From the NCBI GenBank assembly GCA_031362565.1, contig JANLSU010000048.1, positions 1-64,000 on the forward strand: a DNA stretch of 64,000 nt, read 5' to 3'. This document shows, in pieces, positions 1-48,259 of the stretch; position 1 is the stretch's first letter, and each line of letters opens with the position of its first letter. Both the position numbers and the translations under genes were made by a program. The notes under the pieces are model-generated. The model was not told the origin of the DNA. It made no database searches and saw only the letters and a program-made list of their open reading frames with translations. Source of the DNA: a bacterium. Lineage in GTDB: Bacteria; Krumholzibacteriota; Krumholzibacteriia; G020349025.

Positions 1-122
1 GCCGTGACCTCTTCGAGCCAGCCGGGGCGCGGCCGCTCGAGCAAGAGTCCCAGCAGTCGCCACTCCGCAGCGACCGCGAGAATGCGCCGGCAGTCCGGCG
101 CCGTCGCCATCGTCGCGTTCAT
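1..122 (-). CDS. 5' part of probable TorD/NarJ-like Mo-enzyme maturation chaperone (runs off window start)
   Basis: ATG at 122 overlaps the TGA of the upstream gene (ATGA); reads MNATMATAPDCRRILAVAAEWRLLGLLLERPRPGWLEEVT; position after alpha/beta/gamma is typical for the chaperone. Confidence 0.55.
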   Translation of the reverse strand, partial: MNATMATAPDCRRILAVAAEWRLLGLLLERPRPGWLEEVT

Positions 123-1003
123 GATGCACCTCCCAGTGCCAGCGGGATCCACACCGAGCGCATTTTGCGCGCGCCGACTTCCTGCCGCTTGCCGTTCCAC
201 ACCGCGAATGCCACCTGCGACCGTGCCTGGCCGCGCAGCAACTCCGGCAGCGGCTTGGTGATGACAACGGACCACGTCGACGCCGCCCACGTCCCGGAGC
301 CGTTCGAGCGCGTCTCCGGCATCGGCGTCAGTGTTCCCGGTCCTTCAGCCAGTAGATCCTGCACCGGCCGGTCAAGTGGATGCTCGTTGCGATTCGCGGC
401 GCGTGCCGGCGCGTAGCGCTTCGCCATCTCGAGTTGCTCCGGTGAACCCTTGGTAAGCGAGTGAGCCTCGAATGGATAGTGGTCGACGCTCGCGTTCGGG
501 TAATACACCTGGATCGAGTCGCCGCGCCCATTCGCCTTCGCTTGCCAGGCCGCCGACCAGTAGGTGACCTCGACCGGCATGCCGCTCTCCCCCATCTGCG
601 GCGCCGGCACGTTGGCGCCGGTCACCTGCGGCAGTTGGACCGCGCACGCGTCGGTAAACCGGGCGGCACCCGGCAAGTCGTCCATTGTGGAGTCCACCCA
701 CGACAACCGAAAGGCGACCCGCGTGCCGTCGGTGAGCGCCTGCACTCGCACCGTCGGAGTCGAAGGCACCATGAGCCGCGGTTCCACCAGGTCTTGCGGG
801 ATCAGCGCGGCGTCGTACGCCGGCACGGCCTTCCACACCGGGTCGGCAGGCGTCGTTGGCAGCGTCGCCATCTTCACTGCGACCACTTCGGTCAGCGGCG
901 CAGGGGCGGGCTTGCCACAACCGGCCAGCACGAGCCCCACGCCCGCGAACGCGAGCACGGTGTACCGCACGCGCGCCCAATTCGCAGAGTCTTGCATCGT
1001 CAT
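119..1003 (-). CDS. Heme b gamma subunit of type II DMSO-reductase-family enzyme (EbdC/NxrC-like), lipoprotein
   Basis: Lipobox LAGC; motifs FRLSWVD, DACAVQ, PQMG, AFAVWNG...RK typical of the ethylbenzene dehydrogenase heme domain; follows the beta subunit. Confidence 0.8.
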   Translation of the reverse strand: MTMQDSANWARVRYTVLAFAGVGLVLAGCGKPAPAPLTEVVAVKMATLPTTPADPVWKAVPAYDAALIPQDLVEPRLMVPSTPTVRVQALTDGTRVAFRLSWVDSTMDDLPGAARFTDACAVQLPQVTGANVPAPQMGESGMPVEVTYWSAAWQAKANGRGDSIQVYYPNASVDHYPFEAHSLTKGSPEQLEMAKRYAPARAANRNEHPLDRPVQDLLAEGPGTLTPMPETRSNGSGTWAASTWSVVITKPLPELLRGQARSQVAFAVWNGKRQEVGARKMRSVWIPLALGGAS

Positions 1004-1009
1004 CCCTCC

Positions 1010-2155
<1,146 letters not shown>

Positions 2156-2161
2156 CAGCGC

Positions 2162-5616
<3,455 letters not shown>

Positions 5617-5620
<4 letters not shown>

Positions 5621-7299
5621 GGATGTGCCTCCCAACTGCGAATGTGCGCGACGATGGCTTCGATCTCCGATTGCGCCAGGGCGCGCCGCGTGACGGAGCC
5701 GGTGCCAAATCCCAACATTGAACTGCCGCGCCGGCCGCGGCGAATGGTCTCCACGAGATAGGTGTCGGTCGCGTTCCGCAGCAACGTCGGGTTGGCGAGC
5801 GCGGTGCCTTCGCCGCCCTCGCCGTTCTTGCCGTGGCAGGCGCTGCAGCTCGCGGCGTAGAGCGCCGCGCCAATGCGCGCGTCGCCCGCGACCCAACGCG
5901 CCGGTTTGCCATCGTCGAGCGGACTTGCACCGCCACCCAAGCTGCGGACGTAGGCGACGACGAAATCGATTTCTGCCGGCCGCAAGCCGCCTTCCGACTC
6001 ACCCCAGGCCGGCATGCGACGCGGCCGGCGTCCGTGCGTGATGGTGGCCTTGAGGAATGCGTCGGACGCGATCCCGAGGAAATCCGGATTGCCGATCGCC
6101 GGGAATGCCACCATGCCTGGATAACGCATCCCCTCCCCGTTCGACCCATGACACGCAGCGCAGAACGTGCCGAAGAGAGTGGCGCCATCGGCCGAGAACT
6201 CGCGCGCCCCGAACCGCTCGGCGCGCACCCGATCCTTTGGCCAGTACGCTTCGGGCAGATTGCTGCGCCGCAGCGACAGCATGTAGAAGACGAGCGCATC
6301 GATATCTTTTTCTGTGAGGCCGAATTCCGGCATCGCCGATCCGGCGACCACGACGGCGGGTTTGCGGAAATGCTCCGCGAGCCAGTTCGCGACCGTGTGG
6401 GCGCCCTCGACGTGGGTGAAATTGCGCTGCCCTGGATCCATCTCACCGATGCGAGTGAGATCTGGACCATCGTCACCGCCGACGCCGCCGACCTTGTGAC
6501 AGCCGCGGCAGCCGCGCGAGTGGAAGACCGCCTTGGCCTCAACGAGTCCCGCCGCACCGACCCGCGACACCAGCAGCGCTTCGATGGCGTCGCGATCTTC
6601 GGGGGCGATTTCGGCGAACGACGTGCGCCACGCCCGAACGCGGCTCGTATCGCGCCGCGCCAAGTGGTGTGGGTACCAGTCGCGGTCGAAGCCGGCGGCG
6701 CCGACGCGCGACAGGTCGGGCCCTTCCATACCGCCGGCGCCGCCCGGACGTGTGGTGCCGCCGCGGCCGTCCAGTTTGTGACACGCCAGGCAGTCATTGC
6801 GCTCCACGAGATTCTTGCCGTGTTCCAGTGCGGCAAGGCGCGGCACTTCGAGATGGGTGTGACACCCACCGCAGCCTGCCGCGGCGTAGTGCCGCGGAAT
6901 CATCGGCTGCGGCCAGTTGGGCACGTCGCCGTGCGCCGCGGCGCGCTCCGTAGCACGCCCCTGTCCGCCATGACAAACGGTGCAGCCGAACTCGCCGGGG
7001 TCATGAAAGACGTTGGGATGATGCGCAAAGAGCGCATTGCCGGCGACGCCCGTCTCGCCCGGCGCCATGCCGACGTGGCACGACACGCAGCGGTCCGCCG
7101 CATGCAAGTTGGGCACCACGATCTGCCGCAGCTGCACCTTGAATTCCGCGGCGTTGGCGGCGGGCAAGTGGCGTTTGTAGTCCCGCTGCACGACGCGCCA
7201 CTCTTGCAAGGCGTTTTCGCGATACGCAGCCCATCCGAGCGCTACGAGCGTCGCGAGGCTCGACCAAAGCAGCAGGTGTTTGTTGGCTCGTGCGTTCAT
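5617..7299 (-). CDS. Membrane-anchored multiheme cytochrome c (7 CxxCH)
   Basis: N-terminal TM helix; CVSCH, CTVCH, CGGCH, CLACH, CRGCH, CAACH, CSACH. Confidence 0.9.
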
Positions 7300-7300
7300 G

Positions 7301-8869
7301 TCAATGCACCGGCCACTGGCTCGGCGACCAGAAGAATTCCCAGTTGGGGCCGCGGAAATGCACCCCGATGATCGTCAGCACGACGTAACCGCACAGAAAG
7401 CAGGTGAAGAGCGCCACGGCACCGGCGCGCGTCGAGTCGTACTTCTTGACGAGCGCCACCGAGAACAAGGCATACAAGAGCGTCAGCACCGTGCCGGGGT
7501 TGATGGCGGTAATGACGAGTTGAGGCACGTGCGGCCACCACTGCCGGATCCAGCCGAAGCGGATGACGAAGGCTTCCACTGCCAGCACCGTACCGAGCCC
7601 GAAGGCCGTCGAGCGCAGCACGGTTCGGACCCCACCCGGTCCGCCGAACCATTCACCCGTGCCCGCCGTTTCGCGCTCCAGAAACGGGATGAGCCCGAGC
7701 CCGAGAAGGACGATCGTCGGAATGCCGATGCCGCCCATGAACGCCGAGAACGACACGAGCTCCTGCAGCCCCAAGAAGTACCAAGGTGCCTTGGCGGGAT
7801 TTTCGGGCACGGCGGGATTTGCCAGTTCCTTGAGCGGTGCATCCTTCAGCAATGCCAGCACCACGCAAATGAGGATCGTCAGCATGAACGCGCCGGCTTC
7901 GGCATAGAAGAGATGTGGCATCGCGGGCACGGTGTTCTCGGGCCCATTGCCGACCGCCGGCGTCCGCCCGCGCACCACGGCCGCCAAGTGGTAGGTCTTC
8001 TGCGGCGTCTCGGTGAACACGGGATACGTCGAGGGCTCGAGCGGCTGCAACCGCTGGTCGGCATCAGCGGGGCGGACAATCCCGCCGTCCTTGCGCACCC
8101 GCCACATGTGCACCCCGAGCAACCCTGTCAGCACGAGCGGCAGGATCATGACGTGCAACAAATAGAAGCGGATCAGCGCTTCCTCGCCCACCGTTTCCGA
8201 ACCCAAGAGCAGGAGCTTCGTGAGCCCGCCCGGATCGAAGTACTGGGTCAGGTGCAACGCGTCGGTCAGCTCACGTGGCGACTGGGCGATGTTGGCGCCG
8301 ATGGTGATCGCCCAGTACGCGAGCTGGTCCCAAGGCAGGAGATACCCCGTGAACGATAGACCCAGCGTCACGGCGAGCAGCCCCATGCCGATGATCCAAT
8401 TGAACTCGCGCGGCGGCCGGTAGCCGCCAGTGAAGAACACCCGTGCCATGTGCAGGAAGACGCCGACCACCATGATGTTGGCGGCCCAGCGATGGATGTT
8501 GCGGATGAAGCGCCCCGTGGGCACGACAAAATGAATGTCCTTCATCGACAAGTACGCCACATCGGGATAGGGCTTGTAGTAGAACATGAGCAGAATGCCT
8601 GTCACCAGGGTCAGGAAGAACGCCGCCGCTGTGATGACCCCGAGTCCCATCGTCGCCGACCACCGCAGCGACCAGCGGTGCACGCGCACCGAGTGCAAGT
8701 GCAGGAACAGGCTGCTGAAGACGAAGGTCGAGCGGCTGCGATCGGAACGCGGTGCACCGGAACGCACGACGGCGTCACGAAAGCGTTGCGGCGAGTGCCG
8801 CAGATTGTCGGCGAAGCGGCGCAGAGCCGGCGTCGCCTCCGGGGTGGGCGGGGCAGGCGCGACACTCAT
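7301..8869 (-). CDS. Cytochrome b of Rieske/cytb complex (b6 and subunit IV regions in one chain)
   Basis: [39 protein letters not shown] in place of PEWY; ATG 8869 overlaps the Rieske stop. Confidence 0.9.
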
Positions 8870-9360
8870 ACGGCCACCTTCGTTCCCGGCGCAACGACTT
8901 TGCCCTCGTCGATCACGAACGTGTTGCCGCCGGTGTGGGTGACCGCGAGCCACGAGAGCGGCTTCGGCGCCGGGCCGCGGACGACCTGGCCGTCGGGACC
9001 GAAGCGCGAACCGTGGCATGGACAATGGAAGCCGTCTTCGGCCTGTTTGACGATGCAGCCCAGGTGGGTGCAGATCGTCGAAATCGCGAAGATGCCCGCC
9101 GCGTCGCGGAGAATCGCCACCGAGCGGCCCGGAGGCACGAACGCCACGCCGGGGGCGAGGGCGTCCGGCAACGTGACCCGGAATTTCTTCGACGGTGACG
9201 GCAAAACCGCCGCGCGCGGTAGGCGCGCGATGCCGAGTGTCGCGAACAGCAGAGTCGCGGTCGCCGACCAGATGGCGGCGATCCCCAGGAAATCACGCCG
9301 CGGCATCGCTTCAGGGTCGAGCCTCGAGCGTTTCGAACTCGCGGGCGCATTCGCGGTCAT
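8866..9360 (-). CDS. Rieske 2Fe-2S protein
   Basis: Tat motif RRDFLG, CTHLGC and CPCHGS boxes; ATG 9360 overlaps the upstream TGA. Confidence 0.92.
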
Positions 9361-11339
9361 GCCGGTACCCTCCAAGTCACGTTGAACTGCACGCGCTCCA
9401 TGCTGATGGCATCCACCGGACAGCGCATGGCACAGAGCGCGCAACGAATGCAGCGTTCTTCGTCCTTCAAGATGGCGGCGTTTGCGGCGAGATCGGCATC
9501 GGCGCCGAGCGCGTGACCGATTGCGGCCTGTAGATCGTTTGTCGGCTCGAGGTCGGTGAGCGGCACGATCTTGAGGCAGAGCGTCGGACAAACGTCGACG
9601 CAACCGCCGCAGAGCACACAGCGCGTGCCGTCGAAGACCGGCGTCACTCCGCAGTCGAGACAGCGTGACGCCTCACGCTGCGCCGCGGGCGCGTCGAAGC
9701 AAATCTCGACGCTGGCGCCTGGCGTGGCGAGGCGCTCGGCGGGTTCCAGGGTCGGAATGACGGCGCGGCGAATGTTCTCGTAGCCGGTCTCGCGCCGGTA
9801 GCGTGCCAGCGGCAAGTGTGCTTCGAGGACCTCCGCGGCCAGCGCGCGGCCCATCACCTGCGCGTAGATCGAGCGCGCCGCCTTCTTCCCCGACGCCACC
9901 GCGTCAATGAGAAGCCGCGTGCCGTGTGCCAAGTCACCGGCCACGAACACGCCGGGTGCAGAAGTCGCAAGCGTCTCGGGATCGACGCGCGGCCACCCCG
10001 GCCGCATCTCGTCGATATCCTCACCGCCCGGCCGCAAGAACGTCAGATCGGGTGCCTGCCCTGTCGCGAGCAATACGGTGTCGCAGGGCACGGTGCGCTG
10101 CTCGTCGTCGTCGAACAACGGCGCGAAGCGGCGATTCTCGTCGTACACCCGTACGCAACGCCGGAACACGACGGCCCGCACTGCGGCGCCGTCGCCACGC
10201 TGAATCTCGACCGGTCCCCAACCATTCAGGCGGTCGATGCCTTCCTCATCGCCTTCCCGGATCTCGACGGTGTCGGCGGGCATCTCCTCCAACGTCTCGA
10301 GCGATGCCAGCGTGACCCGGTGCATTCCGGGCAGGCGCGCAGCAGTGCGGGCCGTGTCATAGGCCACCTGCCGGACAACCGTGCGCGCGACGTCGTACGC
10401 AACGTTGCCACCGCCGATCACGACAACGTCGTGGCCGAGTTTCAGCGCCTCGCCGAGTGCCACCGCACGCAGAAAATCGACACCGCCGAACACGAAGGGC
10501 CCGGCCTCGCCCGGAAGGTTCAAGCCGCGCGCCTTCTTGGCGCCAACGGCAATCAGGACTGCCGCGTAGTCGCGCCGCAGTGCCGCGAAGCTCACATCAC
10601 GTCCGACCGCGACGCCACAGCGGATTTCGACCCCGAGAGCCTCGATGACCGCGATCTCGTGCCGAATGAGTTCGCGCGGCAGGCGATATTCCGGCACCCC
10701 GACGTACAACATGCCGGCAGGCACGGGTTCGATTTCGAACACGACCGGCCGGAATCCGAGGAGCGCCAAGTCGTGGGCCGCGGACAATCCCGCCGGTCCG
10801 GCACCAATGATCGCCACGCGCTGGCCGTTGGCGGGCGCGAAGCGGCCTTCAACGGCGCGATGCAGAAGCGCTGCCATCTCTTCCGCATCGGCGGCGACTT
10901 CGGGGACATAGCCACGCACCGCCGCGAGGACCGCAGCGCTTGGCTGGACACTGGCACCAAACATCTCGCAGGCGAAACGTTTGAGAGCCCGAATCGCGAT
11001 CGGCTGGTCGGCGCCCAAATAGACGCCATCGGCGTCGACGCGTGGAATGGTGCCGCGCCGGCAGGCCGCTTCACACGGCGCGCCGCAGACGCGACCGCAG
11101 ATCGAAGCGAACGGATTCGGGCCGCGGGCGATGAGGTACGCTTCTTCGAAGCGCCCGGCGGCGATGGCGCGGACGTAGCCGCGCGCGTCGGTGTGGACGG
11201 GGCAAGCACGCTGGCAGGAAATGAGGTCGCGGTGGTACCCGTCGCCGGGGACCGCCACCTGCAGCCGCGAACGCCCGAAGGGGGGTTCGGGCGTGGCGGC
11301 TTTGGCTGGCGCAGCTGAGATCCCCGGCTCTGGGCTCAT
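9357..11339 (-). CDS. FAD/NAD(P)-dependent oxidoreductase (GltD-like) with C-terminal 2x[4Fe-4S] domain
   Basis: [57 protein letters not shown]. Confidence 0.9.
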
Positions 11340-11372
11340 GCCTCCGTCCCTTGAGTTTCGTAGGCCACCTGG

Positions 11373-11401
11373 ATTTTCGGATTTACGGACCCGCTAGTCA
11401 A
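11373..11401 (-). promoter_or_regulatory. Putative sigma70 promoter of the NXR-like operon
   Basis: TTGACT-N17-GAAAAT on the minus strand, just upstream of RBS and ATG 11339, next to an AT-rich tract. Confidence 0.5.
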
Positions 11402-11504
11402 GTATTCCGCCTGATATTTTTAAAATACTGTCTAATAAGAAGTTACGATTTTTGTCGCTGATTCCTGGAAGCCGTTGCGTGGACTGGCTTTTGGCCCTAG
11501 GATT

Positions 11505-11532
11505 GAGTACCTGACTTTCGAGTCCGGTATTC
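11505..11532. promoter_or_regulatory. Inverted repeat, candidate Rrf2/IscR-type operator
   Basis: GAGTACCTGACT-TTCG-AGTCCGGTATTC; half-sites resemble IscR type-1 ATASYYGACT; directly upstream of the rrf2 gene. Confidence 0.55.
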
Positions 11533-11557
11533 ACCGCGGTTTCGAAGGGACCCGCCC

Positions 11558-12004
11558 GTGTTCTCCCCGACCTGCCAGTACGCAATCCGCGCCCTGATGT
11601 ACTTGGCACTGCATGAGGGAAAGGGAGCCGCTTTGGCGCGCGACATCGCCGCCGCCGAAGAAATCCCGCGCCAATTCCTGTCGAAGATCCTGCATCAACT
11701 TGCACAGAAAGGGCTGGTGCGTTCGCAGAAGGGGCCGGGCGGCGGCTTCTTCCTTGCACGGGCTGCCAACGAACTCACCGTCGCCGAGATCACGATCGCC
11801 GTGGATGGCATCCAGCAGCCGGCGCGACGCTGTCTGCTCGGGCTCGAGGAATGCAGCGAAGTCGCGAGCTGTGCGCTCCATGAGGCGTGGAAGAAAGTCC
11901 GACTCGACTACGAACGCACCATCGGCGTTCTGACGCTCGCCGATTTGGTCGCGACCCGCGGGCTTCTGAACCCTCTGCCGCATCCGAACCCCACGGATCG
12001 GTAG
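11558..12004 (+). CDS. Rrf2 family FeS transcriptional regulator
   Basis: YAIRAL, IPRQFLSKIL, SQKGPGGGF, C-x6-C-x5-C cluster; divergent from the NXR operon. Confidence 0.92.
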   Translation: MFSPTCQYAIRALMYLALHEGKGAALARDIAAAEEIPRQFLSKILHQLAQKGLVRSQKGPGGGFFLARAANELTVAEITIAVDGIQQPARRCLLGLEECSEVASCALHEAWKKVRLDYERTIGVLTLADLVATRGLLNPLPHPNPTDR

Positions 12005-12054
12005 CTGCAACCTGTCGACTGTCCACCGGCCGAATGCAATCGAGCGGTGTGCTT

Positions 12055-12131
12055 CCCCAAACGAACCCGGCCACCAAGCTCTTACGAGCGAGGAGGCCGG
12101 GCTTCAGGGGCTCGCGAGGAGCCCAACTCTT
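12055..12131. repeat. Conserved structured 77-nt element, copy 1
   Basis: Near-identical to 13818-13894; stems CCCGGCC/GGCCGGG and GGGCTC/GAGCCC. Confidence 0.75.
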
Positions 12132-12247: not shown

Positions 12248-12279
12248 CTTGAAGTTGCGGAGAACGCTGCAACGAAACT

Positions 12280-12297
12280 TTGTGAAATTTTTCACAA
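12280..12297. promoter_or_regulatory. Rex operator (NADH/NAD+ sensor site) 1
   Basis: TTGTGAA-ATTT-TTCACAA, perfect match to the Rex consensus TTGTGAA-N4-TTCACAA. Confidence 0.8.
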
Positions 12298-12313
12298 CTA
12301 GTTCCGGACCGAG

Positions 12314-12331
12314 TTGTGAAAACTTTCACAA
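12314..12331. promoter_or_regulatory. Rex operator 2
   Basis: TTGTGAA-AACT-TTCACAA, second perfect site 34 bp from the first. Confidence 0.8.
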
Positions 12332-12385
12332 ACTCGTGGGCGTGCGGGGAACTCGGAGCGCTGCGCACGGCGGCGGCACCTCGAG

Positions 12386-13052
12386 CTACTGGGCGGCGCG
12401 ACGGCGCTCAGCCAGCTTGGCTTGGCGCACCCGGGACGGCAGGGGCTGGCGGAGTGCCGCTTCGGCGATCGACGAGGCATCGACCAAGCGGTCGAGGTCG
12501 ACGCCGGTTTCGATGCCCATGCCGTGCGGCATGTACACGAGGTCCTCGGTGGCGAGGTTGCCGGTGGCGCCCGGCGCGTAGGGACAGCCACCCAAGCCGC
12601 CGGTCGAGGCATCGAACACGTGCACGCCGAGACCCAGCGCCGCCAGTGCGTTCGCGAGCGCCGTGCCGCGCGTGTCGTGGGAATGCAGTGCGAGCCTCTC
12701 GACATCGAAGGCCTCCAACAACAAGCCCACGACATCGTCGACTTGTGAGGGAACGCCGACCCCGATCGTATCGCCGATCGAAATTTCCTGCACCCCGAGC
12801 GCCAACAAATCGCCGGTGACGCGCGCGACGACGTGCGGATCGACGCGCCCCTCGTACGGGCAGCTGAAGCACGTCGAAACGTAGCCCTGCACTCGCACAC
12901 CGGCACTGCGCGCCCAGACGACGACCGGCCGAAAGCGTTCGATCGACCCGGCGATCGACGCATTGATGTTGCGCTGGTTGAAGGTTTCACTGACGGCCGT
13001 GAAGACGGCTATTTCTTGCACGCCGGCGGCGAGGGCCGCATCGAGCCCCTTC
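12386..13052 (-). pseudogene. 5'-truncated duplicate of HMG-CoA lyase
   Basis: Colinear 667-nt copy of 14157-14823 (KGLDAALAAG... to stop); lacks the N-terminal EVGPRDGLQN catalytic motif and has no convincing start. Confidence 0.8.
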
Positions 13053-13109
13053 TCATAACGACCAAAGGTGGTTGCTCTGCTTGAACGCCGCGGCCCGCAT
13101 GCCGCGACG

Positions 13110-13745
13110 TCAGTGACACATGCCTCCCAATCGCGATGCCAAGAGGGCCAGGTCTGAACTGTCGATGTAGCCGTCTTTGGTGTAGTCGGAACATATCGAA
13201 TAGTTCGGTTGTCCGACCTGGCTGGGGAACTTGTGGGCGAACCTTCCAAACTCCTCGGAATCCACATCGCAATTGGCCGGGAAAGTGTCACAGCCGTTCG
13301 TGCGGATCGGGAGATTGGCGATGAGGACGCCCTCGGCAAGCACACTCAAGCCGTTGGCGCACCCGCCTGCGCGTAGGGCGCCCGTAAACTGGGTCCGGCC
13401 GTTGAGGTCCGTTGGCGCGTCGGCAATATTGCCACCCGGGCACATGCAAAGAAAGCTGTTGAAGAGCACGATTTCCTGCGCCGGCACGCCAGCCAACGGT
13501 GCCCCGTTACAATTCTTGAGGTAGACCTGAATGCCAATTCCGGCTGCCGCGAATGTTTCCCCGCCGCTCGGGTCTATGGTAACGACATCATACGGCTGCC
13601 CAGTACGATACGCGCCGGTGAAGACGCGCGAGAACAACACCGTGGCATACGAGGAATCCGCACAGACGATGCCCATTGCCGGTACAGCCCACCCGATGAG
13701 GGCCACGGCAAGCGGAAAACTCGAAAATACATTCTTGAACTGCAT
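13110..13745 (-). CDS. Secreted Cys-containing hypothetical protein with dockerin/EF-hand-like C-terminus
   Basis: Signal peptide; ADAPTDLNGRTQFTG; DYTKDGYIDSSDL Ca-loop-like motif; RBS GGAGG. Confidence 0.7.
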   Translation of the reverse strand: MQFKNVFSSFPLAVALIGWAVPAMGIVCADSSYATVLFSRVFTGAYRTGQPYDVVTIDPSGGETFAAAGIGIQVYLKNCNGAPLAGVPAQEIVLFNSFLCMCPGGNIADAPTDLNGRTQFTGALRAGGCANGLSVLAEGVLIANLPIRTNGCDTFPANCDVDSEEFGRFAHKFPSQVGQPNYSICSDYTKDGYIDSSDLALLASRLGGMCH

Positions 13746-13817: not shown

Positions 13818-13894
13818 CCCCAAAGCGAACCCGGCCACAAGCTCTTGCAAGCGAGGCGGCCGGGCTTCAGGGGCTCACGAGGAGCCCAACTCTT
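13818..13894. repeat. Conserved structured 77-nt element, copy 2
   Basis: Near-identical to 12055-12131; lies in the leader of the gene starting at 13745. Confidence 0.75.
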
Positions 13895-14103: not shown

Positions 14104-14156
14104 CTTGCAGTTGATCGTCATGCAAAAGGAACGGGCGGCGCGGCGGGCGGCGGCAG

Positions 14157-15083
14157 CTACCGGGCGGCGCGGCGGCGTTCGGAGAGCTTGGCTTGGCGCA
14201 CCCGGGACGGCAGGGGCTGGCCGAGGGCCGCTTCGGCGATCGACGAGGCATCGACTAACCGGTCGAGGTCGACGCCGGTCTCGATGCCCATGCCGTGCAG
14301 CATGTACACCAGGTCCTCGGTGGCGAGGTTGCCGGTGGCGCCCGGCGCATAGGGACAGCCACCCAAGCCACCCGCCGAGGCATCGAAGACGTGCACCCCG
14401 AGGCCAAGTGCCGCCAACACGTTTGCGAGCGCCGTGCCGCGCGTGTCGTGGAAATGCAGCGCCAGGGTTCCGACATCGAAGGTCTCCAGCAGCAAGCCCA
14501 CGACATCGACGACTTGCGAGGGAACACCGACCCCGATCGTGTCGCCGATCGAAACTTCCTGGACGCCTAGTGCGAACAACTCGCCGGTCACCTGCTGCAC
14601 GGCGCGCGGATCGACGCGCCCCTCGTACGGGCAGCCGAAGCACGTCGAGACGTAGCCCCGCACTCGCACCCCGGCAGCGCGCGCCCGGACGACGACGGGA
14701 CGAAAGCGTTCGATCGATTCGGCGATCGACGCATTGATGTTGCGCTGGTTGAAGGTTTCACTGGCGGCCGTGAAGACGGCAATTTCTTGCACGCCGGCGG
14801 CGAGGGCCGCATCGAGCCCCTTCGCGTTGGGAACGAGGGCTGGATAGCGCGTTCCCGCCTGGCGGCGAAGGCGGGCGTACACCGTGTCCGAGGCCGCCAT
14901 CTGTGGAATGGCCTGCGGGCTCACGAACGCGCCGGCCTCGACCGCCGGTAAACCCGCCGCCGCGAGGGCCTCGATGAAACGCACTTTGACGTCGACGTCG
15001 AGCGCCGCGGCGACGTTCTGCAGACCATCGCGCGGTCCGACCTCGTAAACCGTCACGTGCGCTGGCAGGATGCGGGAACTCAT
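14157..15083 (-). CDS. hmgL: Hydroxymethylglutaryl-CoA lyase
   Basis: EVGPRDGLQN, LHFHDTRG, GGLGGCPYAPGATGN; ATG 15083 overlaps the upstream stop. Confidence 0.95.
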   Translation of the reverse strand: MSSRILPAHVTVYEVGPRDGLQNVAAALDVDVKVRFIEALAAAGLPAVEAGAFVSPQAIPQMAASDTVYARLRRQAGTRYPALVPNAKGLDAALAAGVQEIAVFTAASETFNQRNINASIAESIERFRPVVVRARAAGVRVRGYVSTCFGCPYEGRVDPRAVQQVTGELFALGVQEVSIGDTIGVGVPSQVVDVVGLLLETFDVGTLALHFHDTRGTALANVLAALGLGVHVFDASAGGLGGCPYAPGATGNLATEDLVYMLHGMGIETGVDLDRLVDASSIAEAALGQPLPSRVRQAKLSERRRAAR

Positions 15084-15571
15084 ACCGGTTCCGCCGCCAA
15101 ACGCACCAACGTGACGCCGCTTGCGACTTGCGTGCCGGCGACGGCGTGCACGTGTTCGACGATCCCGGCGCGCGGCGCGACGATTTCGTACTGCATCTTC
15201 ATGGCTTCGAGAACGACCAACGTCTGATCCTTGAGAACCGTATCGCCGGCCGCCACCAAGACCTTCAACACCGCACCCGGCATGGGAGCGGTGAGTTCGC
15301 CGGGCGGCGGACCACCGCGCTTGCGGCTCGGGGTTTCGAGACGCAGATGGTGCACGTGGCCGTCGATCCAAATCCAGCGCTCGTCGCCCGACTTGGCGAC
15401 GATGCAGCGCCGCTGCCGTCCCGCTTCGCGCAACACGTAGTCGCCCGGGCCCAGTTGATCCCAGGTGAAGATGCGCTCCCCGGCCGCGGTGGCGAGATGC
15501 AAGCGGTCGCCGTCGCGGCGTGCGGCGATTTCAACAAGCGTGTCGCCATTGCGAAAGCGGCGCGTGATCAT
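15080..15571 (-). CDS. Biotin carboxyl carrier subunit of acyl-CoA carboxylase
   Basis: APMPG, EAMKM biotinylation motif; ATGA overlap at 15571. Confidence 0.9.
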   Translation of the reverse strand: MITRRFRNGDTLVEIAARRDGDRLHLATAAGERIFTWDQLGPGDYVLREAGRQRRCIVAKSGDERWIWIDGHVHHLRLETPSRKRGGPPPGELTAPMPGAVLKVLVAAGDTVLKDQTLVVLEAMKMQYEIVAPRAGIVEHVHAVAGTQVASGVTLVRLAAEPV

Positions 15572-17103
15572 GATCGGCCCCCGCCGTTCGCGTGCCGCCA
15601 GGCGCCGAGCGCCGTCCATGGAGTCGCTGCCACGCTCGTGTCGCTGGTTTGCGCACCGGTCGCGCCGGCGCCGACGCGCGGTCCGGCCGCATCGTGCAAT
15701 GCCACCGCCGCCAGCGCCTCGTCCGGCAGCGGCACGGACTCGGGCGTCCAGTCCGCCAAATGCTCGGCCAGGAAATGCGTCGTGAGATCGCCGCGCTGAA
15801 ATGCGTCGACCTCGAGAATGGCCTGCAAGTAATCGAGATTGGTGGGCACGCCCAAGATCACGAACTCGGCGAGCGCGCGCCGCATGCGGGCCGTGGACTC
15901 GGCGCGGTCACGGCCGATCGTGATCACCTTGGCCAGCATCGGGTCGTACTGGATCGGCACGTCGAGCCCGTCGCGCAGCGCGCCGTCGACCCGCACGCCT
16001 GGCCCGCCGGGATGGCGAATGAGCAGGATCCTGCCGCCGGCCGGCAGAAAACCGCGTGCCGGCTCCTCGGCGTAAACCCGGCATTCCAGAGCGTGGCCGC
16101 GTTGCACCGGGTGGAGCGCTGCGGCCGGCATCGGGAGGCCGGCGGCGACTTCGAATTGCATCCGCACGAGATCGAGTCCGGTCACCATCTCGGTGATCGG
16201 ATGCTCGACCTGCAAACGGGTGTTCATTTCCAGGAAGTAGAAAGCGCCATGCGCGTCGAGCATGAACTCGACAGTACCGGCGCCGCGATAGTCGACGGCG
16301 CGCGCCGCCGCGACCGCCGCTTCACCCATGCGGGCCCGCAACGCCGCATCGACGACCGGCGAAGGGGTCTCTTCGACGATCTTCTGGTGCCGGCGCTGGA
16401 TCGAACACTCGCGTTCGAAGAGATGCACCGTGTTGCCATGCGCATCCGCGAACACCTGAAACTCGATATGGCGCGGCCGCTCGAGGTATCTCTCGAGGTA
16501 GATGGTGCCGTCACCGAACGCCTTCTCGGCTTCGCCGCGCGCCAAGCCGGCGGCGCGTTCGAACTCGGCGGCCTCGTGAACGACGCGCATGCCCTTGCCG
16601 CCGCCCCCGGCGCTCGCTTTGACGAGGACCGGAAAGCCCATCTTGGCCGCGGCCTTGGCGAGCACCCCGACGTCCTGAGTCTTGCCATCGGTGCCCGGCA
16701 CGACCGGCACGCCGGCCTTTTGCATGAGCGCCCGGGCGCCGATCTTGCTGCCCATGGCCTCGATCGCATCCGGCGGCGGTCCAATGAACGTCAGCCCGGC
16801 GGCGGCGCAACGCCGCGCGAAAGTCGCGTTCTCGGACAAGAATCCGTAGCCCGGGTGCACGGCATCGCAACCGGCCGCGGCGGCGATTTCCAGCAACCGG
16901 TCTTGGTTCAAATACGACTTCGCGGCCTCGGCGGGCCCCAAGAGGTAGGCCTCATCGGCGCGCGTCACGTGCGACGCGTGCGCGTCGGCGTCCGAGTACA
17001 CCGCCACCGCTTGAATGCCAAGTTCGCGCAACGTCCGCTGAATGCGGATGGCGATCTCGCCGCGGTTGGCGATCAGCACTTTGCGAAACAGTGGTTGCTT
17101 CAT
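15568..17103 (-). CDS. Biotin carboxylase (methylcrotonyl-CoA carboxylase alpha, BC part)
   Basis: KVLIANRGEIA, HPGYGFLSEN, GGGGKGM, ERECSIQRRHQK, EMNTRLQVEH. Confidence 0.95.
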   Translation of the reverse strand: MKQPLFRKVLIANRGEIAIRIQRTLRELGIQAVAVYSDADAHASHVTRADEAYLLGPAEAAKSYLNQDRLLEIAAAAGCDAVHPGYGFLSENATFARRCAAAGLTFIGPPPDAIEAMGSKIGARALMQKAGVPVVPGTDGKTQDVGVLAKAAAKMGFPVLVKASAGGGGKGMRVVHEAAEFERAAGLARGEAEKAFGDGTIYLERYLERPRHIEFQVFADAHGNTVHLFERECSIQRRHQKIVEETPSPVVDAALRARMGEAAVAAARAVDYRGAGTVEFMLDAHGAFYFLEMNTRLQVEHPITEMVTGLDLVRMQFEVAAGLPMPAAALHPVQRGHALECRVYAEEPARGFLPAGGRILLIRHPGGPGVRVDGALRDGLDVPIQYDPMLAKVITIGRDRAESTARMRRALAEFVILGVPTNLDYLQAILEVDAFQRGDLTTHFLAEHLADWTPESVPLPDEALAAVALHDAAGPRVGAGATGAQTSDTSVAATPWTALGAWRHANGGGRS

Positions 17104-17227
17104 CGTCCGCAGGCTAACACCTGGCCGACATGCGTCGCAACTGCAGCGCGGGGGCGCGGCCGGAATCGCATTCACGGATGGACGTAGTTGCGCAGCTGGA
17201 GCACCCGGAGGCCACCGGAAGAGCCCC

Positions 17228-17698
17228 TCAACGATAGAAATCGACCCATTCGAAGTGGCAGGCGCGGGGGCCGGCTTGCGCGAAGTCGGCGGAGGAATCG
17301 ATTTCGAAGCCGTCACTCGTGGGCCGCAACGGCATGAAGAGCGGATCTTCGGGCCCGAGTGCCTGGCTCGCGGCAGTGCCACGCCGGCCGGTTTCCGAAA
17401 CGCTGCCGTCGTGGTGCACCGCGATCTCGACGCGGCGATCGGCGTATTCGAAATGAAAACCTTCGAGCGCCCGGACGTGCAGCCGGATCTGCAGCGCCTG
17501 ACCGCGGCCCGCAAGCGCCAGATCGGCCCGGCCGATGCCGGAGCCGGCGACCGTCACGATGGTGCAGGACGCCGTTTGCGAGGTTTCAATGCGCGTTGAT
17601 TCGGATGCCGAGGTGACGCGGACTCGCGGTGGCAGAGATCCGGCGCACGCCGCGCCCAAAACGAGGCCCATCGCCGCCAGAGCCGATGAACGCCGCAT
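17228..17698 (-). CDS. Hypothetical lipoprotein
   Basis: Signal peptide with LGAAC lipobox-like motif; fills the gap between carboxylase genes; RBS GAGG. Confidence 0.6.
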   Translation of the reverse strand: MRRSSALAAMGLVLGAACAGSLPPRVRVTSASESTRIETSQTASCTIVTVAGSGIGRADLALAGRGQALQIRLHVRALEGFHFEYADRRVEIAVHHDGSVSETGRRGTAASQALGPEDPLFMPLRPTSDGFEIDSSADFAQAGPRACHFEWVDFYR

Positions 17699-17715
17699 CG
17701 CGGTGGCACCTCACA

Positions 17716-19326
<1,611 letters not shown>

Positions 19327-29119: not shown

Positions 29120-30517
29120 ATGGCGGACTTGCGCGTGCATTTCGCCGGCATCGAGTCCCCCAATCCGTTCTGGCTCGCCTCGGGGCCGCCCACCAATTCG
29201 GGCGATCAAGTGCGCCGGGCCTTCGATCTGGGATGGGGCGGCGCGGTGTGGAAAACGGTCGGCGAGCCCATCGTCAACGTTTGCTCCCGTTACTCGTCGG
29301 TCGACTTCGGCGGCCAGCGCATGATGGGCCTCAACAACATCGAACTCATCAGCGACCGGCCGATCGTCGAGAACCTGCGCGAGATCGCCGCCGTCAAGAA
29401 ACAGTATCCGCGCCACACCGTCATCGTCTCGCTGATGGTGGAATCGACCCGCGAAGCGTGGCACGACATCGTCAAGCGCGCCGAAGACACCGGTGCCGAC
29501 GGGCTCGAGCTCAACTTCGGATGTCCGCATGGCATGAGCGAGCGCGGGATGGGCGCCGCAGTCGGCCAAGTGCCGGACTACACCTGCCAAATCGTCGAGT
29601 GGGTCAAGGAAGTGGCGCGCACGCCGGTCATCGTCAAGCTGACGCCGAACGTGACCGATGTGCGGTATATCGGCCGCGCCGCCGTCAAAGCCGGCGCCGA
29701 TGCCGTGTCGCTCATCAACACCATCAACAGCATCACCGGCATCGATCTCGAGGACTTCGTGCCGCGGCCGCGGGTCGGCACATTGTCGTCGCACGGCGGC
29801 TACTGCGGCCCGGCGGTCAAACCCATCGCTTTGAACCTGGTGTCGCAGATCGGCACCGACGCCGATTGCCGGCGCATCCCGATGTCGGGGATCGGTGGCG
29901 TGACGTCATGGACCGATGCGGCCGAGTTCATCGCCCTCGGTTGTTCTACGGTGCAGGTTTGCACCGCCGCCATGCACTACGGATTCCGCATCGTCGAGGA
30001 CCTGGTGGACGGCCTCTCGGGGTGGATGGATGAACGCGGCTACGAGACGATCGAAGACTTCCGGGGCCGGGCGCTGCCGCACGTCAGCGATTGGGGCCAT
30101 CTCGATCTCAACTATAAGATCGTGGCGCATATCGACACCGCCAAATGCATCGGCTGCCAACTGTGCTACGTCGCCTGTCAAGACACTGCACATCAGTGCA
30201 TCTACGTGGGCGATGCGCTGGAAACGAACGGCACGCCGCGGGCGCCCAAGGGCGCCTCGGCAAGCGCCGGCCATGCACCGGCTTTCGTGCCCGAGGCGTT
30301 CCGGGTGCGCGGTGAACCGATGCGCGCGCCGGTCACCGGGCACGGCGTTTTGGGGCCGGAGAACCTCGCGGCGCGCATCCCATGGGTCAAGGAAGACGAC
30401 TGCGTCGGTTGCAACCTGTGCATGTTGGTGTGTCCGGTACCCGAGTGCATCACCATGGTCGAGCTCGACACCGGCCGTAAACCCGAGAGCTGGAACGAAC
30501 GCCAGCGCCGCAAGTAA
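29120..30517 (+). CDS. preA: NAD-dependent dihydropyrimidine dehydrogenase subunit
   Basis: NPFWLASGPPT, GLNNIELISDR, ELNFGCPHGMSERGMG, GGYCGPAVKPIAL, two 4Fe-4S motifs. Confidence 0.93.
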   Translation: MADLRVHFAGIESPNPFWLASGPPTNSGDQVRRAFDLGWGGAVWKTVGEPIVNVCSRYSSVDFGGQRMMGLNNIELISDRPIVENLREIAAVKKQYPRHTVIVSLMVESTREAWHDIVKRAEDTGADGLELNFGCPHGMSERGMGAAVGQVPDYTCQIVEWVKEVARTPVIVKLTPNVTDVRYIGRAAVKAGADAVSLINTINSITGIDLEDFVPRPRVGTLSSHGGYCGPAVKPIALNLVSQIGTDADCRRIPMSGIGGVTSWTDAAEFIALGCSTVQVCTAAMHYGFRIVEDLVDGLSGWMDERGYETIEDFRGRALPHVSDWGHLDLNYKIVAHIDTAKCIGCQLCYVACQDTAHQCIYVGDALETNGTPRAPKGASASAGHAPAFVPEAFRVRGEPMRAPVTGHGVLGPENLAARIPWVKEDDCVGCNLCMLVCPVPECITMVELDTGRKPESWNERQRRK

Positions 30518-32265: not shown

Positions 32266-32934
32266 ATGAAGAGAGTGTCGTTGCTCACCACGGCCGCCAT
32301 GCTCCTGCTCGCGGGAAGCGCTGCGGCCCAGAACGCTCTGATCGACTATCAGGGCTACTCCTACGAGACCGGTGGATTTCCGGTCAGCAATCCCGGCGAC
32401 GTTTTGTCGATCGTCGGGGTCGTCGACAATCTCGATGCACGCTTCGGCGTGAATCTGGCCGTTGACGAAGTAACTCTGTACGTCACGAATCTCGTTTCGA
32501 CGGGCCAGGTCGACCAGGGCGGCGGAGTCCTCTCCATCGCCTACGGCGGCGGCTCCATCGATCTGTACCGCGACCCGAGCCGTGATCACGATTACGGCAT
32601 CTCGCCGCCCAACGCGACCGCACCGTCGACGTTCACGAACGGCGCATTGTTCCTGGGCGGAACGCTCAACAGTTTCTTCATGTTCTACGATTCCGCGACC
32701 GGCAGCGGGGCGTACGAAGGCAATGCGTCCTTCACGGCAGGAAGCGGTTTGGTGACGCTGAACCAGTTGAATGCGGCAGGATACACATTTGGTGGAACCC
32801 TCGGTTCCGCAGCATCCGGTGGCAACGTTCCGGCGGGTTACGACCTGCAGGTCGACGGCGTCATCGAAGTCGAAGTCATCGTCGGCGTCGAGCAGAAGAG
32901 CTGGGGCGCCGTGAAGGACCTGTACCGCCGCTGA
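32266..32934 (+). CDS. Secreted protein A1 with SWGAVKDLYRR tail
   Basis: Signal peptide; Gly/Thr/Ser-rich beta-type body; paralog of 34066-34734. Confidence 0.88.
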   Translation: MKRVSLLTTAAMLLLAGSAAAQNALIDYQGYSYETGGFPVSNPGDVLSIVGVVDNLDARFGVNLAVDEVTLYVTNLVSTGQVDQGGGVLSIAYGGGSIDLYRDPSRDHDYGISPPNATAPSTFTNGALFLGGTLNSFFMFYDSATGSGAYEGNASFTAGSGLVTLNQLNAAGYTFGGTLGSAASGGNVPAGYDLQVDGVIEVEVIVGVEQKSWGAVKDLYRR

Positions 32935-32998
32935 TCGCGGTCGAACCCAATTTGTCGAACACACACATCGTAGGATGAGGTTCGTTCCGGAGGTTTTC

Positions 32999-33622
32999 AT
33001 GCACATCAAAGCGACTGCAGCTTCGCTGGCCGTGGTGGCGTTGCTGGCCAGCGCCGGTGCCGCGGTGGCGGATCCGCCCAACTTCGATTTCTTCGGCTAC
33101 GCGCAGGTCCCGGCAGCGCCCGGGGGCGGACTCATCGTCCGCAGCGTGTTGACGAACAACGGGGTCGTCCCGACGCCCATCGTTCTCGACTTCACCACCA
33201 AGCAGTACACACTGGTGATCACCGGCACGTTCGCAAGCGCCGCCGGCATCGCGCAGCAGTACAGCGGCGGTACGTTGTCGATCTACGAGGACGCGATCGG
33301 CGGCGGAACGGCGGCAAACTATGCGAGCCCGGCGACCTTCACCGACGGCACGTTGATTCTGACCGGCGTCGTGGACGGCAACCTGACCCGCAACACGTTC
33401 ACGCCGACGCTCGGCAACTTCATTGCCAAGATCGACTTCACCGGCGGCACCCGCTTGGGGAGCCTGAGCACGCCCCAGGACTGGCCGTGCGGCGGCGGCT
33501 GGAGCCGGAGCGTTTCCGGGATCCCGGCCGGCTACCAAGAGAACTGGGACGGCAAGATCGACCTCGCGGTCGTTGGCGTCGAGAGCAAGAGCTGGGAAGG
33601 CGTCAAGGCCCTCTACCGCTGA
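32999..33622 (+). CDS. Secreted protein B1 with SWEGVKALYR tail
   Basis: RBS GGAGG; signal peptide; paralog of 34783-35406. Confidence 0.88.
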   Translation: MHIKATAASLAVVALLASAGAAVADPPNFDFFGYAQVPAAPGGGLIVRSVLTNNGVVPTPIVLDFTTKQYTLVITGTFASAAGIAQQYSGGTLSIYEDAIGGGTAANYASPATFTDGTLILTGVVDGNLTRNTFTPTLGNFIAKIDFTGGTRLGSLSTPQDWPCGGGWSRSVSGIPAGYQENWDGKIDLAVVGVESKSWEGVKALYR

Positions 33623-34065: not shown

Positions 34066-34734
34066 ATGAAAAAAACCAACTTCATGATCGCCGCGATGGC
34101 GCTTTTGGTGAGCAGCGCCGCTCACGCGAACGTTGCCATCATCGACTACCAAGGCTACGCGTGGGAAACGGGCGGCTTGCCGCTCAGTAATCCCGGCGAT
34201 GTGCTCTCGGTTGTGGGCGTCGTCGACGCGCTCGACGCCAGCTTCGGCGTCAACCTGTTGATCGACGAAGTCACGGTCTACGCCTCGGGTCTCGTGTCGA
34301 CCGGCCAAATCGACCTGGGCGGTGGGGTGCTTTCCGTGTCGTACACCGGCGGCACGCTCGAGCTCTGGCGCGATCCAAGCCGCGACCACGACTACGGTGT
34401 GTCGCCGCCGAACACCACCGCACCGCCGACGTTCGTAAACGGCGGGCTCTTCTTGGGCGGCACGTTCCAGAATTTCTTCCTGTTCCTCGACACGTCCACC
34501 GGGACCGGCGCTTTCCAGGGCGACGTCGCCTTCACGGCCGGCAGTGGAATCGCGGCGCTGAGCGCCCTGCAGCCCAACGGGTTCACGTTCGGAGGAACCT
34601 TGAATTCGGCGGCGTCCGGCGGCAACGTGCCGGCGGGATACGACATGCAAGTCGACGGAACGCTGCAAGTAGAAATCGTCACGGGCGTCGAGGACAAGAG
34701 CTGGGGCGCCGTGAAGGAAATGTACAGACGGTAA
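34066..34734 (+). CDS. Secreted protein A2 with SWGAVKEMYRR tail
   Basis: Paralog of A1 (IDYQGY..ETGG, RDPSRDHDYG.SPPN, GGNVPAGYD.QVDG). Confidence 0.9.
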   Translation: MKKTNFMIAAMALLVSSAAHANVAIIDYQGYAWETGGLPLSNPGDVLSVVGVVDALDASFGVNLLIDEVTVYASGLVSTGQIDLGGGVLSVSYTGGTLELWRDPSRDHDYGVSPPNTTAPPTFVNGGLFLGGTFQNFFLFLDTSTGTGAFQGDVAFTAGSGIAALSALQPNGFTFGGTLNSAASGGNVPAGYDMQVDGTLQVEIVTGVEDKSWGAVKEMYRR

Positions 34735-34782
34735 TCGGGCGACATCGCTTCAACCCTTGGCAACGCGGTCCCGGAGGTTCAA

Positions 34783-47488: not shown

Positions 47489-47492
<4 letters not shown>
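46146..47492 (-). CDS. sufD: FeS assembly protein SufD
   Basis: EAWRHTD, VFNGRV.V, KPELEIHADDVRCTHGAT, FYLRSRG. Confidence 0.93.

Positions 47493-48251
<759 letters not shown>

Positions 48252-48259
<8 letters not shown>

Follow-up and report, generated by a model that had tools for sequence, protein, structure and literature searches.

We analysed a 64,000-nucleotide stretch of a Krumholzibacteriota genome (GenBank assembly GCA_031362565.1, contig JANLSU010000048.1, positions 1 to 64,000; hereafter the window) and identified at its start an eight-gene operon, in one orientation on the minus strand, which joins a nicotinamide adenine dinucleotide (NAD)-linked Rieske/cytochrome b (bc) module to a molybdoenzyme resembling the nitrite oxidoreductase (NXR) of anaerobic ammonium-oxidising (anammox) bacteria. 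The operon is real, widespread and uncharacterised, and combines two known kinds of system with specific differences from the anammox complexes. Our preferred, if tentative, reading is that it is a mobile cassette for respiring nitrate anaerobically by menaquinol bifurcation, in which one electron would go to nitrate and the other to NAD+; that electrons run from quinol to nitrate we regard as probable.

From the upstream end the genes encode a cytoplasmic GltD/NfnA/DsrL-like flavoprotein with flavin adenine dinucleotide (FAD) and four [4Fe-4S] clusters (9357..11339, 660 amino acids; Pfam Fer4_20, Pyr_redox_2 and Fer4), a Rieske [2Fe-2S] protein with a twin-arginine membrane anchor (8866..9360, 164 amino acids; PF00355), a cytochrome b6 fused to a five-helix subunit IV (7301..8869, 522 amino acids, identified by family matches), a membrane-anchored heptaheme cytochrome c (5617..7299, 560 amino acids), an NxrA-like catalytic alpha subunit with a molybdenum bis-pyranopterin guanine dinucleotide cofactor, exported by twin-arginine translocation (Tat) (2162..5620, 1152 amino acids), an NxrB/NarH-like iron-sulfur beta subunit (1010..2155, 381 amino acids; TIGR03478, E 1e-80, below the cut-off), an EbdC/NxrC-type heme-b gamma subunit predicted to be a lipoprotein (119..1003, 294 amino acids; PF09459) and the 5′ end of a TorD/NarJ-like chaperone (1..122). 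Four junctions are ATGA overlaps (9357-9360, 8866-8869, 5617-5620 and 119-122) and the remaining gaps measure 1 nt (7300), 6 nt (2156-2161) and 6 nt (1004-1009). Coordinates and family matches thus agree with the initial annotation, which had described eight co-oriented genes with four such overlaps and gaps of 1-6 nt. The chaperone is cut to 40 codons because the window begins at base 1 of its contig, C11; the first 141 nt of C11 are the last 141 nt of contig C30, on which the complete chaperone frame (20339-19665, 224 amino acids) gives a weak match to TIGR03482 (E 4e-7, below the cut-off). An assembly artefact was rejected: overlapping contigs from run X1 tile positions 1-12100 without a gap, although X1 may be the source sample and is then not independent.

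To follow the operon through other genomes we scanned species genomes with the alpha subunit as anchor, finding at least 716 relatives, of which the best 79 loci were kept; their records fall in Acidobacteriota, Planctomycetota, Binatia, Myxococcota, Methylomirabilota, Verrucomicrobiota and others. The order flavoprotein, Rieske, cytochrome b, cytochrome c, alpha was kept in 60/60 loci that extend 6.2 kb or more upstream of alpha (19 of the 79 were shorter and left out of this count), which speaks against a chance arrangement, and all seven genes were present in 49 of the 50 that also had 3 kb downstream, L026 being without a gamma match. With starts chosen by script, 4-nt overlaps joined flavoprotein and Rieske in 48/62 loci, Rieske and cytochrome b in 49/69 and cytochrome c and alpha in 49/69. 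A reverse search of metagenome contigs anchored on cytochrome b (best 80 of 595) found alpha, by hand count, in all 26 loci whose cytochrome b matched at 70 % or more and that had 1.9 kb or more downstream. Among 401 evenly sampled Acidobacteriota genomes 33 had a close alpha, 31 a close cytochrome b and 30 both; the three with alpha alone encode the module in a form whose cytochrome b is split in two. As the loci are kin and not independent, these figures are counts and not a statistical test. The proposal that an anammox-type NAD(P)-oxidoreductase/Rieske/cytochrome b module is joined to a periplasmic NXR-like enzyme is borne out by this synteny as a conserved unit. The operon occurs in 2/41 genomes of the host's class (host included) and in 5/61 of the family of L001, a patchy distribution within class and family of the kind expected of lateral transfer, which suggests a mobile cassette. 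The host genome holds no other close match to the cytochrome b, Rieske or alpha proteins; in G041 (Thermoguttaceae) the alpha gene is present in two full-length copies (C16, C39), 77-78 % to that of the window.

The flavoprotein has NfnA (9BOV_A) as its best match in the Protein Data Bank (PDB); its 16 Cys are invariant (56/56) and Lys120 matches the cluster-ligating Lys170 of NfnA. Where relatives have YRR, 54 of 56 sequences carry SLE and two ALE (six mis-called rows dropped), and in the homologous DsrL enzymes the same motif exchange is reported to tell NAD(H) from NADP(H) use (PMC7596348). Judged by this motif the site is most likely one for NAD(H), not NADP(H), so that the GltD-like flavoprotein with extra FeS clusters of the initial annotation stands with a narrower cofactor than the NAD(P)H first given. 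NfnA is described with a Lys-ligated cluster and a non-bifurcating FAD at the end of the chain (PMC11829005), and because it is the nearest solved homologue any bifurcation here would lie at the quinol site. Flavin bifurcation of the NfnB/NfnL type was rejected, as Lys120 replaces the Glu cluster ligand, SLE stands for YRR and the operon is without a small subunit. The FAD/NAD(P) core with its 3Cys+Lys cluster is shared with NfnA (9BOV, PMC11829005), and N-terminal clusters, FAD/NAD(P) domain, linker and C-terminal ferredoxin are shared with DsrL (PMC7596348); unlike either, the protein has no NfnBC or DsrAB partner and sits in a bc operon, and the RR motif kept in NfnA is lost. The window also contains a dihydroorotate/dihydropyrimidine dehydrogenase-like gene with a ferredoxin tail (29120-30517), and a second, shorter GltD-like flavoprotein is encoded on C30 (G000:C30:5591-6994).

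The Rieske protein, whose best PDB match is Kuste4569 (9RK4), has its membrane anchor, the ligand pattern CxH...CxxH with the disulfide Cys (67/67) and the motif CPCHGSRF, in which the potential-raising Ser is present in 69/69 and the next residue of the pair is Phe in 67 and Tyr in two. The Kustd1480 Rieske, with the same Ser/Phe pair, was measured at +335 mV (PMC12954380). In cytochrome b, more closely defined here as a b6/subunit IV fusion than in the initial annotation, the heme-b ligands His126, His140, His239 and His254 occur in 67/67 and the quinol-oxidising (Qp) motif APWY, a P-WY variant of the PEWY type as in anammox subunit IV, in 68/69; an AlphaFold2 model gives 4+5 long helices at a mean pLDDT of 71.8. 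The Cys that would bind heme c_n (CxGG) was found in 0/67 of these proteins, compared with 8/8 anammox rows (WCMGG). The position five residues after the bN ligand is Arg; in bc1 complexes this presumably holds the quinone-binding Qi His. With neither the b6f-type heme c_n Cys nor the bc1-type His on the quinone-reducing side, a plain Q-cycle is doubtful; of the earlier proposal of a quinol-to-nitrate Q-cycle the direction from quinol to nitrate is most likely and the cycle itself is in doubt.

Anammox bc clusters for comparison were taken from hydrazine-synthase-bearing genomes; PF18582 also matches non-anammox Planctomycetota (41/201), and five genomes with 809-826-amino-acid PF18582 frames, four of them with twin copies, were treated as anammox. 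A midpoint-rooted tree of 42 rows places the fused cytochromes b in a clade of their own (100/99 support) outside the anammox one: the relationship to anammox bc complexes holds at the level of the module but the branch is separate. L003, L176, L177 and L178 encode a version of the operon with split cytochrome b and subunit IV, also without the heme c_n Cys, and since L003 falls nearer the anammox rows in this tree the split version is possibly a stage before fusion. The anammox complexes matter here for the route of the second electron. Hauser et al. proposed in 2025, from an AlphaFold3 model, that two His62 hold a new heme b between them, with bracing from Arg266, Lys267 and Arg550 of the flavoprotein, and that this heme would connect the hemes in the membrane with four Fe-S clusters and FAD (PMC12954380). 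The G177 proteins have His and Arg at the residue numbers given there for Kustd1481, Kuste4571 and Kustd1483, and these wire residues map to His57, Arg259 and Lys260 of the cytochrome b studied here (each 67/67) and Arg639 of its flavoprotein (equivalent to Kustd1483 Arg550; 56/56). The position of Kuste4570 Arg511 is Gly in the flavoprotein and likewise in the Kustd1483-like row. By analogy His57 is a candidate ligand of a heme at the dimer interface. With Kustd1480-1485 and Kuste4569-4574 as described (PMC12954380) the operon shares the Rieske protein, a b6-type cytochrome b, a five-helix subunit IV with P-WY, a multiheme cytochrome c, a four-cluster GltD-like flavoprotein (33-35 % identity) and the interface-heme His/Arg/Lys; it differs in the cytochrome b/subunit IV fusion, the lost heme c_n Cys, SLE for YRR, seven hemes instead of six or eight, its separate clade, its heterotrophic hosts and its partner, a molybdoenzyme where the anammox partner is an octaheme protein of the hydroxylamine oxidoreductase (HAO) type.

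The outlet of the module is the cytochrome c, in which we counted the seven hemes already noted by the initial annotation (CxxCH at residues 71, 106, 143, 170, 264, 380 and 485). Seven hemes are found in 70/73 homologues, with four distal His and four Met invariant in 71/71. The structural model (pLDDT 86.9) has an N-terminal helix, a three-heme c7-like part and four class-I-like domains, and a fold search with it gave partial matches only, the best to the QcrC diheme protein (TMq 0.19). More distant cytochrome b loci retain flavoprotein and Rieske and differ in what follows. Thirteen loci with a cytochrome b at 57-59 % lead to a type II enzyme of ~920 amino acids (two were scanned and pass TIGR03479), that of L129, PcrA-like, being closest to 5E7O/4YDD, which we take to be perchlorate reductase; the seven such loci read completely have a six-heme adaptor. 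L136 and L139 pair a ten-heme cytochrome with a NapA-like protein (below the cut-off), with NapG/H-like genes in L139, and in L141 a Nap-branch cytochrome b is joined to a heptaheme cytochrome and a 79 % alpha. In the loci read, adaptors carry seven or eight hemes with a close NXR-like alpha, six with PcrA-like and ten with NapA-like enzymes, the exception being L143 (six hemes, 62 % alpha). The adaptor thus mostly follows the terminal enzyme, and the NAD-linked bc module is a plug-in, joined by six-, seven- or ten-heme adaptors to three kinds of periplasmic molybdoenzyme. Further variants include an outlet with two diheme cytochromes c (L146:7655-15093), a beta-like gene upstream (L160:1052-7868) and an eight-motif cytochrome without a flavoprotein match (L153:5497-9441).

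Such swapping of the module between terminal enzymes, as in L141, would also be expected if the operon encoded two separate, co-regulated machines, a nitrate reductase anchored as a lipoprotein and an NAD-linked bc complex that reaches several acceptors by way of a cytochrome colliding freely, with no fixed supercomplex; gamma having its own lipid anchor and the host having only one cytochrome b of this kind fit this as well. We think it improbable, given that heme number tracks the terminal enzyme (L143 excepted) and that the cytochrome c and alpha genes so often overlap. The question is one of assembly, and separate machines are compatible with either model of electron flow considered below.

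The best solved match of alpha is Kuenenia NxrA (PDB 7B04, 846 bits), with 39 % identity to the anammox protein; Cys67, Asn70, Asp71, Cys75, Cys115 and Asp274 are kept in 70/70 (one alpha dropped for length) and the Tat motif RRxF in 71/71. Beta keeps its 15 cluster Cys in 68-69 of 69, and gamma has Met137 and Lys280 aligned with Met155 and Lys305 of 7B04_C in 65/65 (two gammas dropped for length) and a lipobox Cys29 in 62/65. Shared with Kuenenia NXR-ABC (7B04, PMC8387239) are the Tat-exported alpha, the 3Cys/Asp cluster FS0, Asn70, the Mo-ligating Asp and the Met/Lys heme-b gamma; the differences are the 39 % identity, a sister clade, a lipoprotein gamma, the co-encoded bc module and an operon without an NXR-T-like gene. 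A cytoplasmic NarGHI was rejected on the Tat motif, the EB_dh-type gamma and a TIGR01580 score of 120 bits against a cut-off of 1084, and Methylomirabilis oxyfera Damo_0774-0779 was rejected as the same enzyme since it groups with Nitrobacter-type NxrA. As the sequence of a type II dimethyl sulfoxide reductase alone does not reveal its substrate, and as the enzyme of the sister module is PcrA-like, we considered another oxyanion such as chlorate, perchlorate or selenate as terminal substrate. This appears unlikely, because Asn70, Asp71 and Asp274 match the nitrate/nitrite enzyme, the alpha is the sole Nar/Nxr-like gene found in the host, where it stands alongside NrfAH, and the cassette is too common among the Acidobacteriota sampled for a rare substrate.

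That alpha and gamma retain every Kuenenia NXR cofactor ligand checked, and that the Kuenenia enzyme is bidirectional (PMC8387239), would suit a different role, that of a nitrite oxidoreductase in nitrite oxidisers so far unrecognised, the bc module being reversed to NADH or the heptaheme cytochrome feeding one of the host's two heme-copper oxygen reductases. Suarez et al. placed the Thermogutta alpha with anammox NXR and read such Planctomycetota genes as putative nitrite oxidoreductases (PMC10732223). However, a quick alpha tree of 23 rows, in which Nitrospira and Nitrotoga are not represented, sets the bc-linked alphas apart as a sister clade of 17 rows (SH-aLRT 95) outside the anammox NXR clade, and the module also serves reductase-type PcrA-like and NapA-like enzymes. 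For these reasons, and for those of host and energetics given below, we hold nitrite oxidation to be unlikely. Anammox NXR groups in this tree (99) with a second NxrA-like type from Acidobacteriota (L179:6442-13115 of G452; L180:3549-10496 of G576), ~40 % to the alpha of the window, which has no bc genes in the fetched stretch and a diheme cytochrome c fused to gamma. This second type would be the better candidate for unrecognised nitrite oxidoreductases.

The host genome, with a completeness rating of 100 %, has a freshwater sediment metagenome as its best run. It contains genes of the futalosine pathway (menaquinone), NrfA with NrfH, qNor, complex I, an alternative complex III beside an oxygen reductase and a second oxygen reductase. 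Searches for NirK, RuBisCO, ATP citrate lyase and acetyl-CoA synthase gave no match, that for citrate lyase being without a positive control, and NirS was rejected because matches to PF02239 were short and weak. A flavoprotein replacing the NADH input of complex I was likewise rejected: a NuoF motif matched nothing, but the family search placed NuoF beside NuoB on C83, and a NuoF-family gene is present in 56/57 genomes tested. Among the 50 of 79 carrier genomes surveyed, many of them incomplete, 27 have nrfA and two a weak citrate lyase match. Taken by gene content, host and carriers look like facultative heterotrophs that would reduce nitrate to ammonium. Menaquinone, NrfAH and qNor in the host, and the lack of any autotrophy marker among those searched for, favour nitrate reduction over nitrite oxidation. 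Also in favour of nitrate reduction are the cofactor ligands that alpha and gamma share with Kuenenia NXR, an enzyme that reduces nitrate in vitro (PMC8387239).

Parts of the operon appeared in print in 2017. Elcheninov et al. reported that in Thermogutta terrifontis NarGHI and a chaperone are encoded next to Rieske, cytochrome b and cytochrome c genes (THTE_1512-1510); they suggested a complex III link to nitrate respiration and described the enzyme as cytoplasmic, and their table gives reads for each of THTE_1509-1514 (PMC5673643). THTE_1506-1512 share with the operon the order Rieske, cytochrome b, cytochrome c, alpha, beta, gamma, chaperone, and T. terrifontis is a nitrate-to-ammonium respirer with NrfAH, whereas the available text of that report treats the genes as a cytoplasmic NarGHI with an ordinary bc1 complex and mentions no flavoprotein, heptaheme cytochrome or Tat signal (PMC5673643). 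Dibrova et al. (2017) described long cytochromes b of subfamily G or clade G′ in large conserved operons, with no function proposed, and list PF07992, PF14691, PF00384, PF09459 and PF02613 in the neighbourhood legend of their Fig. S1 (PMC5600118). By description, and not by a tree, the long cytochrome b, the lack of CxGG (GLGx entries), P-WY and the large operon are shared with clade G′ (PMC5600118). In haloarchaea, as here, a periplasmic type II nitrate reductase is proposed to receive its electrons from a Rieske/cytochrome b complex, but that cluster has a low-potential Gly/Phe Rieske, no c-type cytochrome, PDWF and an actinobacterial-type cytochrome b, and no flavoprotein is described for it (PMC3509893). 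In the open-access literature, subscription papers lying outside the search, we found no description or test of the whole eight-gene unit; the arrangement may to that extent be called uncharacterised, as first annotated, with the Thermogutta and clade G′ reports as printed accounts of its parts.

In the reading we prefer, menaquinol (MKH2) would be oxidised to menaquinone (MK) at the Qp site of a dimeric cytochrome b. The first electron would pass from the Rieske protein through the heptaheme cytochrome to gamma heme b, the Fe-S chain of beta, FS0 and Mo, where nitrate would be reduced to nitrite in the periplasm and the nitrite handed on to NrfAH. The second would cross the membrane by hemes bP and bN without reducing quinone and continue through a heme b between two His57 to the four Fe-S clusters, FAD and NAD+. 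The net reaction would be 2 MKH2 + NO3- + NAD+ -> 2 MK + NO2- + NADH with two charges moved, and the NADH could be recycled by complex I. That the operon forms one quinone-bifurcating menaquinol:(nitrate + NAD+) oxidoreductase supercomplex, which has given up quinone reduction and remakes one NADH per nitrate, is a more speculative proposal still, to which we give about one chance in three.

The nitrate/nitrite couple lies at +420 mV. With menaquinone at -70 mV and NAD at -320 mV (PMC12954380), splitting quinol between nitrate and NAD+ leaves a standard-state margin of +0.06 to +0.12 V per quinol at a proton-motive force of 0.18-0.12 V, and a Q-cycle one of 0.31-0.37 V; for a reverse Q-cycle that lifts electrons from nitrite to menaquinone the deficit per electron has the same size. 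Forward energetics thus allow quinol to nitrate where the reverse cycle falls short, and with a menaquinone host in which no autotrophy marker was found the earlier suggestion of nitrite oxidation with reverse electron flow is not upheld. The ample margin would equally serve nitrate reduction with a working Q-cycle, in which the flavoprotein oxidises NADH and feeds the quinone-reducing site, making the operon a self-contained NADH:nitrate oxidoreductase, close to the first option of the initial annotation, or an overflow valve. An NAD(H)-type motif suits such a catabolic donor, NfnA is reported to oxidise NADPH in the bifurcating direction (PMC11829005), and a Q-cycle has been proposed for the haloarchaeal Rieske/cytochrome b-Nar complex (PMC3509893). 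We consider it possible but somewhat unlikely, as its quinone-reducing site would have to work without heme c_n or a bc1-type Qi His and, given the near-universal NuoF-family gene, complex I pumping would be wasted, an objection raised by Hauser et al. for anammox (PMC12954380). Reduction of NAD+ is favoured because the wire to the flavoprotein is kept and heme c_n is lost.

Several observations weigh against bifurcation to nitrate and NAD+. Glu324 and His319, conserved in 67/67 on the cytoplasmic side at the place that heme c_n would occupy, could belong to a functioning site of quinone reduction, as NADH oxidation would require. The high Rieske potential is read from two residues, and in anammox itself the interface heme is an AlphaFold3 prediction (PMC12954380). 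The margin is thin, heterotrophs are seldom short of NADH, so that little benefit is evident, and ten charges per NADH fit only below ~150 mV of proton-motive force. As to the hosts, a RuBisCO-family match was obtained in 7/50 carriers, three of them strong, and the absences are those of metagenome-assembled genomes: the Methylomirabilis carrier G043 showed no RuBisCO, yet its genus has one. The likeness to Thermogutta is one of published gene order (PMC5673643), not of compared proteins.

Several neighbouring genes may bear on the operon. A divergent Rrf2-family regulator gene (11558..12004, plus strand; TIGR00738 above the cut-off) is the likely controller, and Rrf2 genes lie upstream in two sequence clusters, in 21 and 14 of 57 loci, overlap between them not counted. 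A scan of positions 1-12100 gave one promoter-like site (11401-11373) against 1.1 expected and four terminator-like sites against 8.5 expected, and a repeat search of the Rrf2 intergenic region returned short chance pairs only. Beyond the chaperone lies an alginate-export-family outer-membrane porin (C30:18394-19713), a family that also flanks the operon in 11 loci (e.g. L003:16140-17690) and is possibly an anion channel. Elsewhere in the window the 3′ portion of a gene for hydroxymethylglutaryl-CoA lyase is duplicated over 670 nt with 90 % identity (12384-13052 and 14155-14823). One copy (12386-13345) is without a normal N-terminus; the intact gene lies behind genes for biotin carboxylase and carboxyltransferase (15080-19326), an arrangement resembling a leucine-degradation cluster. 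Near this duplication an imperfect palindrome of 54 nt occupies 12279-12332 and a 78-nt repeat occurs at 12055-12131 and 13818-13894. At 32341-33622 and 34141-35406 the window has a tandem duplication of 1.3 kb (73 % identical), and at 46146-49694 SufB/SufD-family Fe-S assembly genes.

For anammox complexes, in organisms without genetics, it has been hypothesised that quinol bifurcation reduces NAD(P)+ (PMC12954380, PMC8387239). That hypothesis becomes testable with a closely related module that occurs in heterotrophs, among them probably a nitrate reducer in culture, and if our reading is true the operon would provide the first culturable test case of a mechanism proposed so far for anammox alone. 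Loss of heme c_n, fusion of cytochrome b and the switch from an NADP to an NAD motif offer a natural contrast for how bc complexes route the low-potential electron; if bifurcation holds, the loop with complex I would move up to ~10 charges per net NADH, compared with six for a Q-cycle chain. The alpha subunit is common, occurring in 33/401 of the Acidobacteriota sampled, and easily scored as a nitrite oxidoreductase, as in PMC10732223. If it is instead a nitrate reductase feeding NrfA, surveys would be overlooking a route from nitrate to ammonium and miscounting nitrifiers.

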